From: an uncultured Verrucomicrobiae bacterium
Lineage (GTDB): Bacteria; Verrucomicrobiota; Verrucomicrobiia; Limisphaerales; Palsa-1400
DNA: 64,000 nt
NCBI GenBank assembly: GCA_963707025.1
Contig: CAVPOM010000006.1
Location: 64,001 to 128,000, forward strand
Direction: 5' to 3'
Below, piece by piece: positions 24,017-30,508 of the stretch. The notes beneath the pieces were generated by a model, which was given only the letters and a program-made list of their open reading frames with translations, made no database searches and was not told the origin of the DNA. Position numbers and translations under genes: made by a program. Numbering within the stretch: position 1 is the stretch's first letter; each line of letters starts with the position of its first letter.

Positions 24017-24044
24017 ATAATAACGGTTACATAGATATTGTCAA
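24017..24044 (-). promoter_or_regulatory. Near-consensus sigma70 promoter pointing toward ORF 23405..24010 and GH27
   Basis: TTGACA-N16-TATTAT, with a GTG 6 nt after the -10 box. Confidence 0.55.
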
Positions 24045-24244
24045 CGGCAAAGTGGCAAGATAATGCAGAATGCAAAATGGGTGGAGGGCGGCGGACCCGA
24101 AGCGGGGATTCCGATGGAAAGAACTTGACGGGGCGACAGGATAGTGCGTCTATTGATCAACCATTAGCAATGCTCATAATTTCTAATAGTGAGTATAAGG
24201 AGAGAGGATGCCGACTTGGATGGCGGACAGGAGAAACGGTTGAG

Positions 24245-27200
24245 ATGAAAACGAGAAATTCAGTGTTAAAAAGGCTCAGTTTGGTTGCCAGCGCCTGGGT
24301 CTGGTGCGCCTTGAACCTGGAAGGGCAGAGCGCCCCCACCATCACCAGCCAGCCGGCCAATCAGTCGGTTTTGCCTGGGACCAATGTTGCATTCAGCGTG
24401 GTGGTGGCCGGCTCCGGCCCATTCGGTTATCAATGGCAATTCAACGGTACAAATCTTCCGAACAATAATATGATCGCAACCGTGGCGGGCAACGGTGGCG
24501 GAAACTACGTGGGGGATGGCGGCGCGGCCACCAACGCCAATCTGAATGCTCCGTCGGACGTGGCGTTGGACGCCCTCGGCGAGCTCTACATTGCTGACGC
24601 CGTCCACCAATGCATTCGCAAGGTGGACAACAACGGGATCATCACCACGGTGGCGGGCACCGGCAGCGCTGGCTATGGCGGAGACGGTGGCGTGGCCACC
24701 AAGGCCTATCTACATCAGCCGTACGGCGAAGTGGTAGATACCTCTGGCAACCTTTATATTGCGGACTACTTCAACAACCGCATTCGCCGGGTGGATCCCA
24801 ACGGCATCATCACCACCGTGGCGGGGACGAACGGCACAGGATACTTCGGGGACGGTGGCGCGGCGACCAATGCCTGGCCTGGCTGGCCCCTACGGGGTGG
24901 CCTTGAATTCAGCGGGCGACCTTTACATTGCTGCCTCCGGAAACGGCCGCGTCCGCAAGGTGGACACCAACGGCATCATCACAACGGTGGCCGGTGGAGG
25001 TATCGCCGGGGATGGCGGCGCAGCCACCAACGCTTCGCTGATTACTCCCAGAGCAGCGGCGGCGGATGCTTTCGGCCACATTTACATTGCTGACACCGGC
25101 CACAACCGCATTCGCAAAGTGGACACGAATGGAATCATCACGACGGTGGCGGGCGGAGGTTCCGGCGGTGATGGCGGCCGGGCTACCAACGCCAGCCTGA
25201 ATACTCCCTGCGGCCTGGCCTTGGATGCCGCGGGAAACCTGTATATTGCTGACGCTACTGACGAACGCGTCCGCAAGGTGGACACCGATGGAATCATCAC
25301 CACTATCGCAGGCAATGGCAATGGAGCCTTCTCCGGGGACGGCGGAGCAGCCGCCACTGCCAGCCTGGATTATCCCGAGGGTCTCGCCTTCGATGCCGTT
25401 GGCAACCTGTATATTGCGGACTCCTCCAACAACCGCATCCGCGAAGTCTATCTTGCCGGGTATCCAACGCTGGCGAACACCAATGTGAGCGCCAGCAATG
25501 CCGGCAACTACGCGGTCGTCATCACCAACCCTTACGGCAGCGCCACGAGCGTGGTAGCCACGCTGACGGTGCAAGGGCCGCCAGTCGTCACCCTTCAGCC
25601 AACAAACCAGACAGTTCTGGCAGGAAGCAGTCCTGTTTTCTCGGTGGCGGTTGCCGGCTGGGATCATTTGGGTATTGGTGGTACTTGGACATGACCAATC
25701 TGGTTCAGAGCGGCACGAACAGCATGCTCGCGCTGCCCGGCGTTTCCACGAATAATGCCGGCAGTTACACGGTGGTGGTAACCAACGCTTATGGCAGCGT
25801 GACCAGCCGGGTTGCTGCTTTGACGATAGCGTTTCCGCCCACAGTGACTGCCCAATCCGGCAGCCTGGCGGTGTTGGCGGGAACCAATGTGAGTTTGAGC
25901 GTCACGGTGGCCGGCACCGGCCCGTTCTCCTACCAATGGCTGTTGAACGGCTCCAATTTCCTGACCAACATCATCACGACCGTGGCAGGCAATGGCAACG
26001 GAACGTACGCGGGGGACGGTGGCCCGGCTACCAACGCCAGCATATCCGACCCTTCCAGTGTGGTTTTGGACGGCTCCGGCAACCTCTATATTGCCGACAC
26101 TTTCAACGATCGCATCCGAAAGGTGGACACCAACGGCACGATGACCACGGTGGCGGGCAATGGCCTCAACACCTACGGTGGCGACGGCGGCGCGGCCACC
26201 AATGCCAGCCTGCATACGCCCTGGGGGGTGGCTATGGATGCCGCAAGCAACCTGTATATTGCAGACTACAACAATCAGCGTATCCGCATCGTAAGCCCCA
26301 GCGGCATTATCAGCACCGTGGCTGGCAATGGCACTTCAGGCTATTCCGGCGACGGCGGCGCGGCCACTAACGCCACGCTGGCTTACCCCGCCGGTGTGGC
26401 CTGTGATGCCGCGGGCAACTTGTTTATTGGGGACCCTAACGAGGCCGCCATCCGCGAGGTGGGTATCAATGGCATCATCACCACGGTGGCGGGCACCGGC
26501 AATATAGGCTATTCCGGGGATGGCGGCGCGGCTACCAGCGCCAGTTTGTTTTCTCCCTACGGCGTGGCCTTGGATGCCTCGGGCAACTTTTATATTGCTG
26601 ACCGCAGCAACAACCGAATCCGCAAGGTGGACTCTCACGGCATCATTAGTACCGTCAGCCGGCTCTGGAAACGCTGGCTTTTACGGGGACGGCGGCCCGG
26701 CCACCAACGCCAGCCTGCAATCTCCCTCCGGGGTGGCGGTGGATTCCTCCGGCAACCTGTATATCGCCGACTACGCCCACAATTGCGTCCGCAAGGTGGA
26801 TACCACAGGCATCATCACCACGGTGGCGGGCGGCCTCGCCCGGGGATCTTCCGGGGACGGCGGCGCCGCCACGAACGCCAGTCTTACTAATCCGTCCGGC
26901 GTGGCCTGTGATGCCGCGGGCAACTTGTATATTGCGGACAGCGGCAACCAGCGCATCCGAGAGGTTTATCTTGCCGGGTATCCAACGCTCGCCCTAACCG
27001 GCGTGGGCACCAACAACGCCGGCAACTACACGGTTGTTGTCACCGGTCCTTACGGCAGCGTGACCAGCGCGGTGGCGACGCTTGCCGTCACCATTCCGAA
27101 CACGCCGCCGCAGATCATCACTGGTGATGCCTTTTTCGGCTTCCTGACCAACCAGTTCGGGTTCAATGTCAGCGGCGCGGCCGGGCAGACGATTGTGGTG

Positions 27201-27329
27201 GACGGCTCGACCGACCTGGTGAATTGGACTCCGCTCTGCACCAACACGGTCTGCAGCAACCTATTTTATTTTTGCGATCCGGCCTGGACCAATTTTCCGT
27301 GGTGCTTTTTCCGGGCCAGGTTGCAGTGA
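24245..27329 (+). CDS. Secreted Ig-domain / NHL-repeat protein (two 6-bladed propellers), split by three frameshifts (~24878, ~25658, ~26657)
   Basis: Four consecutive ORFs continue one repeat pattern (ITTVAG..G..GDGGAATNA.L..P.GVA.D..GNLYIAD..N.RIRKVD); signal peptide; C-terminal GSTDLVNW...FFRARLQ. Confidence 0.85.
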
Positions 27330-27340
27330 GAAACGAACGC

Positions 27341-27407
27341 AGAATGGAGGAGGGGAAGGCGGGATTAAGATTAGGATTAAGATTAAGATTAGGATTGGGA
27401 TTGGGAT
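27341..27407. repeat. Composite repeat: purine leader plus (GATTAR)n hexamer array
   Basis: agaatggaggaggggaaggcgg-gattaa-gattag-gattaa-gattaa-gattag-gattgg-gattgg; related copies at 55143 and 58468. Confidence 0.85.
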
Positions 27408-27487
27408 GCGGAGGGGAAAGGATCGGCAATCCGCGCCTTGACGCGGGGGCCGGTGTCCGGTAGTTTGCATTATTTCTTGTGAACGTT

Positions 27488-28123
27488 ATGGATAATTTTC
27501 TGGTGCCGATGGTGGTCGAACAAACGGGCCGCGGGGAACGCGGCTATGACATTTATTCGCGGTTGCTGCGGGACCGGATTGTTTTTTTGGGCACGCCGGT
27601 GGATGACATGGTGGCCAACCTGATCATTGCCCAGTTGCTCTTCCTGCAGATGGACGATCCGAAGAAGGACATCCATCTTTACGTCAATTCGCCGGGGGGG
27701 AGCGTGACGGCGGGGCTGGCGGTGTATGACACGATGCAGTTTTTGACCTGCGACGTGAACACGTATTGCATCGGGCAAGCGGCGAGCATGGGGGCCATCC
27801 TGCTGTGCGGGGGCACGAAAGGCAAACGGTTCGCGCTGCCCAATTCCAACATCATGATCCACCAGGTGCTGGGCGGGGCGGAAGGGGCGGCCAGCGACGT
27901 GGAAATCCGGGTCAAGTACATGCTCAAGCTCAAGCACCGCCTCAATTCGATCATCGCCAAACACACCGGCAGGGCGTTTGAACAGGTGGAAAAGGACTGC
28001 GACCGGGATAATTTTATGACGGCGCCCGAGGCCAAGGAGTACGGGCTGGTGGATGAAGTGGTGCAGTCGCGCAAGGAAATTCCGGGTTTGACGGATGGAA
28101 AGACAAATGCCCTCATTCCGTAG
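27488..28123 (+). CDS. clpP: ATP-dependent Clp protease proteolytic subunit
   Basis: [38 protein letters not shown]. Alternative GTG start at 27479. Confidence 0.97.
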
Positions 28124-28131
28124 ATTTCAGC

Positions 28132-28479
28132 ATGGCGCAACCTAATAACATCACGCTCTGTAGTTTCTGCGGCAAATCGTACGGGGAGGTCAAAAAGATG
28201 GTTGCCGGCCCCGGCGTCCGTATTTGCGACAATTGCATCAAACTTTGCCACAGCGCGCTCACGGGGCGCCCCGACAACCGCACGCTTTGCAGTTTCTGCG
28301 GGAGAACCCAGGCGGAAGTCAAGATGCTTATTCCCGGCCGCGGCGTTTATATTTGCGAAAAGTGCGTTGTGCTGTGCAAGAGTGTGCTGGACAAGGAGTT
28401 TGCGGCGGATGCCCGGAAGAAGGCGGCCCAGGAAATTCCGGGATTGACCGATGGAAAAACCAATGCCATCATGTCGTAG
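28132..28479 (+). CDS. Stand-alone protein with two tandem ClpX C4 zinc-binding domains and a ClpP-derived tail
   Basis: CSFC...ICDNC and CSFC...ICEKC; ends [16 protein letters not shown] versus Clp[17 protein letters not shown]. Confidence 0.85.
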
Positions 28480-28487
28480 ATTCCGAT

Positions 28488-29780
28488 ATGGCGCGACCCA
28501 ACAACATCACTCTTTGCAGCTTCTGCGGCAAATCGCACGCGGAGGTCAAGAAGCTGATTGCCGGCCCCGGCGTCTTTATTTGCGACAATTGCATCACGCT
28601 GTGCAAGAGTGTGCTGGACAAGGAGCTTTCGGCGGACAGCCGCAAAACGGCGACCAAATTCAGTCCGCCCAAACCGCACGAAATCAAAGCGCACCTGGAC
28701 CGGCATTGCGTGGGCCAGGACCACGCCAAGAAAACGCTGGCGGTGGCGGTGCATAATCATTTCAAGCGGATCATGCAGGATCCGCCTGTGGAGCCGGGAA
28801 AAGGGGGCGACGAACTGGGGGCGGCCCGGCACGCGGAAGTGGAGATAGAGAAAACGAACATTCTGCTGATCGGGCCGACCGGTTCGGGCAAAACGCTCCT
28901 GGCCCGCACCCTGGCCAAAATCCTGGACGTGCCTTTTGCCATCGCCGACGCGACCACCCTGACCGAAGCGGGCTACGTGGGCGAGGACGTGGAGAACATC
29001 ATTTTGCGCCTGCTCCAGAATGCGGACTACGATGTGAAACGGGCGCAGATGGGGATTGTCTATATTGATGAGATAGACAAGATCGCGCGCAAGACGGAAA
29101 ACGTGTCCATCACGCGCGACGTGTCGGGCGAAGGGGTGCAGCAGGCGCTGCTCAAGATCCTGGAAGGCACGGTCTGCAACGTGCCGCCGCAAGGCGGGCG
29201 CAAGCATCCGCAGCAGGAATACATCCGGGTGGACACCAGCGGGATCTTGTTCGTCTGCGGCGGGGCGTTCATCGGGCTGGAAAAGATCATTCAACGGCGG
29301 CTGGGCAACCGGGTGATGGGCTTTGGCGCGGTGGAACAGGGGCACAAAATCACCTCGGTGGACCGGGACAAGGTCCTGCAATTTGTGGAACCGGAGGATT
29401 TGATCGCGTTTGGTTTCATTCCCGAATTTGTGGGCCGCCTGCCCATGACGACGGTGCTGGAGGAGCTGACGGAAGGGCAACTGGTCAGCATCCTGACGGA
29501 AACGAAAAACGCCCTGGTGCGGCAGTACGCCAAACTGATGGCGATGGAGGGGATAGAACTGGAATTCACCGAGGACGCGGTGCGCGAACTGGCGGCGCAG
29601 GCGATGAGAAAAGGGACCGGGGCGCGAGCCTTGCGCAGCTTGCTGGAGAAGTTGATGCTGGATGTGATGTTCGAGTCCCCGTCGAGCGACGACATTGCGG
29701 GCATCAAGATCACCCGGCCGGTGGTGTTGGGGGAGACCAAGCCCTTGCTGCGGCGCAAGCCCAATCAGGCGGCCGCCTGA
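28488..29780 (+). CDS. clpX: ATP-dependent Clp protease ATP-binding subunit ClpX
   Basis: [41 protein letters not shown] loop. Confidence 0.97.
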
Positions 29781-29789
29781 GCACCTCCT

Positions 29790-29881
29790 GTCGCGGCGGT
29801 CTGTGACCGCCGCACTTCAAGAACGGCGGGGCATTTTTCCGAAGAATAATAATGCGACGGTCATAGACCGCCGCTACAGTG
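29790..29881. repeat. Inverted REP pair upstream of RAYT (GTAG-type, GTAGCGGCGGTCTRTGACCGYCGC)
   Basis: 29790-29813 (+, GTCG variant) and 29854-29877 (-). Confidence 0.85.
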
Positions 29882-29889
29882 GATGCGAC

Positions 29890-30369
29890 ATGACTGAGCG
29901 CCTGCACCGGCTGGAACGCGTCTATCTCCAAAGCCCGGCTTATTTTTTGACATGCTGCACCGCGGCCCGGCAACCGCTGCTTGCGTCTCAACAAATCCAC
30001 GACGCGTTTTTACAATTCTGCCGTGCAGCTTTGCCAAGAAACATTTTCGTGGCCCGCTACGTTCTGATGCCCGATCATCTTCACCTCTTCGTGAAATTCT
30101 CAGATCTCGCGCCCGATCTCTCTTCCTGGGTAAAGAGCCTGAAGAATTCATTATCCAAGACGCTCCGTGAGTCTGGCCACCCATCTCCGCACTGGCAGAA
30201 GGGCTTCTTCGATCATATCGTTCGCGACACTGAATCGTATTCCGAAAAATGGCTGTCCATGGCGGAAAATCCTGTTCGTGCCGGATTGGTCAAGGACAGG
30301 ACGGAATGGCCCTGGCAAGGGGAAGTATATCCATTACGACTTGATGAAAACCGTAGCGGCGGTCTGTGA
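29890..30369 (+). mobile_element. REP-associated tyrosine transposase (RAYT/TnpA-REP, Y1 HUH family); catalytic Tyr apparently replaced
   Basis: YFLTCCT, YVLMPDHLH, WQKGFFDHIVR, NPVRAGL...WPW; flanked by five REPs. Confidence 0.9.
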
Positions 30370-30508
30370 CCGCCGCAGATCGAGGTTTGGGGGCGGATTT
30401 AGCCGATGAAGCATAGTGCGACGGTCATAGACCGCCGCTACAAATTAAGGAATTGAGGCATTTTTCCGAAGAATAATAATGCGGCGGTCCTGGACCGCCG
30501 CTACAGTG
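30353..30508. repeat. Three REPs downstream of RAYT
   Basis: 30353-30376 (+, contains the RAYT stop), 30418-30441 (-), 30481-30504 (-). Confidence 0.85.

Follow-up and report, generated by a model that had tools for sequence, protein, structure and literature searches.

Between clpP and clpX in the window (the whole stretch of DNA analysed, 64,000 nt from an uncultured Verrucomicrobiae bacterium) lies a separate gene of 115 codons that encodes two ClpX-type zinc-binding domains (ZBDs) and no ATPase domain. With it, this lineage has come by its own route to an architecture that is already widespread, and a decoy role for its product is plausible by analogy with known systems. The features of the locus are as follows.

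27438..27466, + strand: promoter-like element upstream of clpP (TTGACG, 17 nt, TAnnnT type); hexamer pair conserved, function putative
27488..28123, + strand: clpP, intact; TIGR00493 above cut-off
28073..28260, + strand: direct repeat copy 1 (clpP 3' end, stop, 8-nt spacer, clpX-type 5' end)
28132..28479, + strand: tandem-ZBD gene, 115 aa, without ATPase domain (Pfam/NCBIfam); orthologue at L139 (P0263)
28132..28260, + strand: ZBD1 (aa 1–43)
28261..28287, + strand: linker (aa 44–52), by codon alignment derived from clpX codons 1–9 and since diverged
28288..28428, + strand: ZBD2 (aa 53–99)
28429..28487, + strand: second copy of clpP tail, stop and spacer, source of the last 16 residues and stop codon of the ORF
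28444..28472, + strand: predicted sigma-70-like site within the second tail copy; clpX starts 15 nt further on
28488..29780, + strand: clpX, intact, with its own ZBD; NF003745 and TIGR00382 above cut-off

The frames of clpP, the 115-codon ORF and clpX are open throughout, and the clpP of the window is the only one located by tblastn in its own genome (G000). The named database matches nearest to the start of this ClpX carry the labels Verrucomicrobiales or Verrucomicrobiae, a group to which the organism probably belongs. Pfam places two stretches of PF06689 (zf-C4_ClpX) in the ORF, at 112 bits, and one in ClpX. No AAA family was matched by Pfam in the ORF, which has the N-terminal C4 zinc-binding domain of ClpX and lacks its AAA+ ATPase; against the ClpX models NF003745 and TIGR00382 it reaches 75 bits, where the cut-offs are 359 and 371. 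All eight zinc-ligand cysteines (8/8) are present, as the earlier note on this DNA had stated.

The segment from the clpP 3' end to the clpX 5' end is duplicated at a spacing of 356 nt, with 79% identity over 212 nt, and ZBD2 is 80% identical to clpX over 166 nt. This agrees with the earlier description of clpP end, spacer and clpX start as present twice and of the ZBD as present three times, and the 28-mer quoted there was found in the letters at both 28371 and 28598. The nine linker codons align to clpX codons 1–9, with ATG changed to ACG. Since the linker is a copy of the clpX start, the gene is made up of clpX codons 1–43, a second clpX start that extends to about codon 56 and the last 16 codons of clpP.

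As the copies are only about 80% alike, an assembly echo is excluded, as had been argued before. The marks of a pseudogene or an echo (stops, frameshifts, dN/dS near 1, identical copies) were not found in the ORF, with the qualification that ZBD2 alone is indistinguishable from neutral. The proposed check against reads succeeded for one part of the gene: in run X1, which may share the window's source campaign, one 151-nt record crosses the ZBD2–tail–clpX junction (28374–28524) with 0 differences, but the run has no cover over 28102–28371. A double-ZBD DNA pattern had one match in the window and none in shuffled sequence (0/100). A frameshift into clpX was considered and rejected: the frame of clpX does extend upstream without a stop (518 aa from a TTG), but it reads ZBD2 out of frame, and an open upstream frame is also present in the congener G003.

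Relatives were found by several routes. A protein search gave, among the best 120 of 732 matches, three further multi-ZBD proteins, P0002 (three domains), P0003 (two) and P0004 (two and a ClpP tail), and a profile search added P0121, with four domains, and its cluster mate P0263. A DNA pattern scan of metagenomes yielded at least 120 loci, among which the gene of this lineage lies directly behind clpP (91–98% identical to the window's) in L053, L138 (P0004) and L139 (P0263). L138 has the full layout, including the next clpX-type start, so that the clpP-(ZBD)2-clpX relatives proposed for searching do exist. In L139 a four-ZBD gene follows clpP with the window's exact fusion junction, which keeps ATG where the window has ACG, and several derived ZBD2 codons are in common; the shared junction and codons identify it as an orthologue. 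L053 and L138 have the same layout with two ZBDs and a different junction. The L138 junction may reflect a separate birth or a remodelled copy, both readings being left standing by a 117-nt ZBD2 tree (22 rows, confined to loci of the family), in which common and separate origins of ZBD2 in the window and L053 gave AU p values of 0.52 and 0.41 (0.38 and 0.31 for third positions).

The gene had previously been taken as newly born. This view has to be given up: the same-junction orthologue belongs to a lineage more distant than a congener without the gene, and motor-less tandem-ZBD proteins are widespread. Synonymous distances over the clpP 3' end (66 codons) are 0.12 between the window and G003, 0.30 between the window and L139 and 0.32 between L139 and G003. 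As G003 is without the gene though nearer to the window than L139, the gene was lost there or collapsed in assembly. Plain clpP–clpX is seen in three congeners (G002, G003 and G004), one of which is the same species as L138, implying a gene that is easily lost or else collapsed in assembly. The G004 sequence equals that of L053 over clpP and up to ZBD1 codon 27 (about 380 nt) and then continues as plain clpX, a pattern that would be expected from recombination between the repeats, or from collapse. Across the family, where the gene is rare, 27 of 30 genomes have a ZBD match, each exactly one, these three congeners among them, so the gene is dispensable or often mis-assembled.

More distant genomes gave little. 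The double-ZBD pattern was found in 0 of 400 genomes of the order besides G000, only 12 of these belonging to the family; in 300 genomes of the class, PF06689 had two matches in eight and three in none among the matches listed; and a related-locus search of genome contigs gave one locus from 93 stretches, with a weak partial match. A same-class genome that also has a normal clpX contains a ZBD match within a 108-codon open frame (G565:C5:123573-123686). Besides ClpX, G000 itself encodes a ClpX-like ATPase some 620 aa long in which no ZBD was matched (L163:3579-5450, on G000:C6, minus strand); a link between this paralogue and the tandem-ZBD gene was discarded on finding the paralogue in 5/5 relatives tested.

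Selection was measured between the window and L139, in both of which the frame is open and all 8 cysteines are kept. Over 90 codons dS is 0.55 and dN 0.24, giving dN/dS 0.42 (Fisher p 0.004). The significant signal sits in ZBD1 (dN/dS 0.19); codons 36–52 give 1.02, linker plus ZBD2 0.74 (p 0.51) and ZBD2 alone 0.61 (p 0.40). The departure from neutrality in ZBD2 is not significant, and near-neutral drift of this domain would be compatible with the data. The ZBD of ClpX itself shows pN 0.01–0.03 at pS 0.40–0.50. Judged by these codon comparisons, the tandem-ZBD gene is constrained, far less so than ClpX's ZBD, and purifying selection on it is real but relaxed. The earlier impression of a gene not obviously decaying thus stands for the open frame and the overall dN/dS but not for ZBD2 alone; likewise, a real gene made by partial duplication and under some purifying selection is upheld by the overall ratio and the orthologues, without significant selection for ZBD2 on its own.

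In neutral simulations the probability of keeping a frame without stops and with 8 cysteines was 0.0008–0.002 at d 0.3 and 0.008–0.014 at d 0.2, values that are biased by the finding of the relatives with Cys-rich queries. The comparison of each copy with clpX, proposed as a check, was run and gave dN/dS 0.25 and 0.40; it was set aside as biased low, since half of the path runs along the constrained clpX. The repeats of L138 differ at only 2/125 nt, which leaves ZBD1 open to refreshing by conversion from clpX.

The protein could be a tolerated by-product with no useful function, its frame kept by conversion from clpX, by a need for clpX upstream DNA or coupling and by weak selection against misfolding, while the gene is being lost through repeat recombination. 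We consider this unlikely, though well worth keeping in mind. The linker and ZBD2 that are not distinguishable from neutral (dN/dS 0.61–1.0), the near-identical L138 repeats, the switch of G004 from the L053 sequence to plain clpX, the lack of the gene in G003 and the loss of one zinc-ligand Cys from ZBD2 of P0003 all speak for it. It leaves unexplained why the unique linker, which is not convertible from clpX, keeps its length and frame in two lineages, why the same ZBD2 positions are changed in five proteins in a pattern that matches unrelated tandem-ZBD proteins, and how one lineage grew to four intact ZBDs. If true, the locus would still illustrate plainly how conversion can hold a partial duplication in place.

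The architecture extends well beyond this lineage. Among the top 150 profile matches, a motif pattern found two to six zinc-finger motifs in 78 of the 142 new proteins, only one of these 78 having a Walker A motif, and three-ZBD forms made up 10/142. Proteins of about 95 residues in which a 16-residue linker joins two ZBDs form a conserved family, represented at L037, L038, L043, L045, L055, L070, L075, L085, L099, L107 and others; at L075 and L085 a class-V aminotransferase gene is found nearby. Other tandem ZBDs are joined to a Clp_N domain (L125:1-579) or to an HTH-like N-terminus (L084:2731-3246, L095:180-686, L109:1818-2351), and L087, L114, L143 and L152 fall in the same Clp_N/HTH-like set. 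Pfam gives HTH matches in L095 and none in L084, L087 or L109. These fused forms recall ligand-sensing repressors of the ClpC2 type, an analogy of architecture. L066 carries two adjacent motor-less ZBD genes, one two-domain and one single-domain (63-638 and 693-1211). Ten pattern matches in viral contigs included no tandem-ZBD ORF.

The stand-alone proteins annotated as ClpX C4-type zinc fingers share with the window's protein at least two PF06689 domains and the lack of an ATPase, and their short-linker forms show the same strand/helix asymmetry (below). They differ in setting and origin: the gene of the window's lineage derives from its own clpX, whereas a clpP match was found at only 4 of at least 120 pattern loci, where flanks are often short (40 loci had only 300 nt). 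Besides the three loci of the lineage, this match was at L113, where a tandem-ZBD gene lies about 50 nt behind a distant clpP homologue, 48% identical over 75 residues (L113:1-752), possibly the same layout in an unrelated lineage. In the open-access literature searched, no title on motor-less tandem-ZBD proteins was found, nor any functional study of the stand-alone zinc-finger proteins.

The two domains of the window's protein have diverged in complementary ways. ZBD1 keeps a ClpX-like strand-loop (E. coli positions 26–31) and has a shortened helix, with Ala at the I46 position and Arg at the Y34 position. ZBD2 has an altered strand-loop (K26M, A29P and P31R in E. coli numbering) and keeps the full helix, with Val at the I46 position, as in the window's ClpX. 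F16 is kept in both. In 5/5 proteins of the lineage ZBD1 keeps A29-G30-P31, and in ZBD2 P31 is changed in 5/5 and A29 in 4/5. The 26–31 strand is said to have been found by Park in 2007 to bind the SspB tail. F16 and I46 line a pocket common to trigger factor, lambda O, SspB and RssB (PMC7804408).

The same asymmetry was counted in unrelated tandems (136 proteins, clustered at 60% identity; the lineage's own proteins and L130 left out). Where the linker is short (at most 24 residues), ZBD1 has the better-kept strand by 25:4 of 32 clusters and ZBD2 the better-kept helix by 23:6 of 31, compared with no bias for long linkers (strand 14:11, helix 11:14); both types of query favour a canonical first domain. 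For the protein-search matches alone the strand bias is 11:1 of 15 at 70% dereplication (p 0.006), and at 60% it is 6:1 of 9 (p 0.13), with the helix at 5:3 and the bias not significant.

AlphaFold2 models of the monomer have both domains folded (pLDDT 82 and 86, and >90 in most domain blocks), each as the four-Cys treble clef of the ClpX ZBD. ZBD1 superimposes on 2ds5 with an rmsd of 1.1 Å over 41 residues (Z 4.6), and a domain model does so with 0.5 Å over 36 residues. A wide fold search with the two-domain model gave no match at Z of at least 5, which is no evidence of a new fold. The pTM of the monomer is only 0.43 and 0.51, so that a closed single chain is not established. In the presence of zinc the two-copy model scored 0.51 against 0.01 for the best of three controls, passing a mark that is reached by 20/30 solved pairs and 1/23 single chains, counts that are only rough here. 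Its runs agree in at least 88% of contacts with pLDDT of at least 80, and in all 25 of the best contacts listed the partners are ZBD1 from one chain and ZBD2 from its mate; the ZBD1 strand lies against the ZBD2 helix. As the ZBD homodimer is already solved (2DS5–2DS8), the pass may reflect likeness only. On these models a head-to-tail dimer, with ZBD1 and ZBD2 paired in trans, is most likely and is favoured over a closed single chain; the covalent single-chain dimer put forward in the earlier note is therefore not supported by the models. From the contacts and substitutions taken together, we infer that one composite pocket, made of the ZBD1 strand and the F16 and helix of ZBD2, would stay ClpX-like while the other is free to change.

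ZBD dimers are reported to be stable. Pairing could also involve ClpX itself: in a reading that we regard as improbable, the ZBDs would swap with those of ClpX, and the mixed dimers would silence, reprogram or cross-link the docking sites of the hexamer. In its favour, most interface positions are preserved, pairing in trans is what the model prefers, products of adjacent genes would be made at the same place, and three-ZBD proteins (P0002 and the 10/142) would leave one domain unpaired in a closed chain. A fixed ZBD1:ZBD2 pairing accounts better for the complementary loss of the strand in ZBD2 and the helix in ZBD1, and exchange may be slow if the dimers are stable.

Another reading, a closed single-chain dimer whose ClpP-like tail tethers the protein or its cargo to the protease, appears very unlikely. 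The complementary asymmetry would also fit pairing within a chain, over 14 codons the tail copy differs from clpP by 4 synonymous and 2 non-synonymous changes (p 0.02), and the L138 gene also ends in a tail copy. Opposed to this are the low pTM values despite well-folded domain blocks, the missing tail in P0121/P0263 and P0002, and the nature of the tail as a forced product of the duplication boundary that carries a promoter-like element.

That element resembles the one upstream of clpP, where TTGACG-17-TAnnnT is present in 16/16 sequences (the window and 15/15 family loci scanned). A promoter scan found one sigma-70-like site in the tail copy where 0.8 would be expected by chance, which is weak alone; at the equivalent site of copy 1 (28088-28116), ahead of the tandem-ZBD gene, the A at position 2 of the -10 hexamer is lost. 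In 15/17 family loci the clpP tail has the clpP-type -35 hexamer or a near match, 17 nt and then the A and T of a -10, a count confounded by Lys and Ile/Leu codons and drawn from family kin that are not independent. The Leu codon at the -35 position is TTG in 14/16, against a background of 28%. Throughout the family (loci L003–L030) the element lies within the last clpP codons, 8–23 nt ahead of the clpX start, and would give a nearly leaderless clpX transcript. The ClpP tail is best read, from these comparisons, as clpX upstream DNA carried along as a passenger. The role once proposed for the tail peptide is thus disfavoured, both by the tail-less orthologue and by the conserved element in the DNA.

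In the mechanism that we favour, tandem duplication of the clpP-end/clpX-start segment, with a second ZBD copy, would have taken place in an ancestor of part of the genus, giving a gene that is probably co-transcribed with clpP and clpX. The product, predicted to be two folded ZBDs, would form a head-to-tail dimer and hence two ZBD-dimer modules without a motor, in each of which one ClpX-like pocket is kept and the other remodelled. Such modules may bind, and not unfold, whatever docks on the ZBD of ClpX (substrates, adaptors, trigger factor, hostile ligands), and so shield ligands from ClpXP, or ClpX from ligands, as ClpC2 does for ClpC1. The direct repeats would make the gene easily converted, expanded to three or four domains, or deleted.

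The protein may thus be a decoy for ClpX ligands with one ClpX-like pocket per domain pair, a proposal that we hold at a little under even confidence. It draws on the same-junction orthologue, the open frame with 8 cysteines, the asymmetry, the two-copy model and the precedents of the free ZBD and ClpC2: the E. coli ZBD on its own inhibits the degradation of sigmaS through RssB in vitro (PMC7226468), and ClpC1 is protected by ClpC2, which acts as a sponge for its ligands (PMC10030653). Relaxed selection, the lack of significance for ZBD2, absence from congeners and the weakening of the asymmetry under stricter dereplication count against it. Trigger factor is present in G000, and SspB was not found in this genome (88% complete); SspB is missing from most bacteria (PMC7804408). 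One RNA run contained no record at least 95% alike to the locus, and run X20 contained only contigs of relatives; stretches lacking cover in the four runs carry no weight either way.

The protein resembles the ClpX ZBD (2ds5) in sequence, four cysteines per domain, predicted fold, predicted dimer contacts and the kept F16, and departs from ClpX in having two domains per chain, asymmetric divergence, no AAA+ motor and a gene of its own. Like mycobacterial ClpC2 it is a motor-less partial homologue of the N-terminal domain of a Clp unfoldase; the sponge role shown for ClpC2 (PMC10030653) is here proposed by analogy. ClpC2 has the Clp repeat domain of another unfoldase and represses its own gene, whereas the tandem-ZBD protein is a C4 zinc finger without a DNA-binding domain, encoded in a clpP–clpX cluster. 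With only PF06689 in the ORF and no Clp_N domain, it may work like ClpC2 and is not a ClpC2. The proposed outcome, a block of adaptor-dependent delivery to ClpXP, would be that of the anti-adaptors IraD, IraM and IraP; these are unrelated proteins (PMC7226468), whereas the tandem-ZBD protein would block as a copy of the docking platform itself.

A zinc buffer or general holdase unrelated to ClpXP specificity is scarcely credible: each chain offers two to four C4 sites, and the human CLPX ZBD binds hydrophobic peptides broadly (PMC7647994), but this reading does not account for the retention of the strand-loop in one domain and its loss from the other. ClpXP is regulated through its docking domain, and a genome-encoded ZBD decoy, if true, would be a new control point parallel to ClpC2/ClpC1. 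A wider proposal, which we put forward as doubtful, is that ClpXP has an overlooked and widespread class of regulators in the motor-less tandem-ZBD proteins, which would be for ClpX the counterpart of ClpC2. They would be born repeatedly from clpX, converge on ZBD1:ZBD2 pairs that are asymmetric, one pocket being kept and the other changing fast, and intercept host substrates or phage or antibiotic ligands that target the docking domain of ClpX; birth, expansion and loss within one genus would be on view at this locus. The making of the gene can be followed here: the linker still reads as a ClpX start, and the relatives display two-, three- and four-domain forms and apparent deletions.

Some features of the surroundings were also observed. 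Directly behind clpX lies a REP-associated tyrosine transposase (window 29926-30369; NF047646 above cut-off), flanked by REP-like inverted repeats at 29781-29886 and 30350-30500. Upstream of clpP, a large Ig/NHL-repeat gene (24038-27329) is apparently split across several frames, which suggests frameshifts or sequence errors, and a short run of a 6-nt tandem repeat occupies the intergenic region at 27363-27404.
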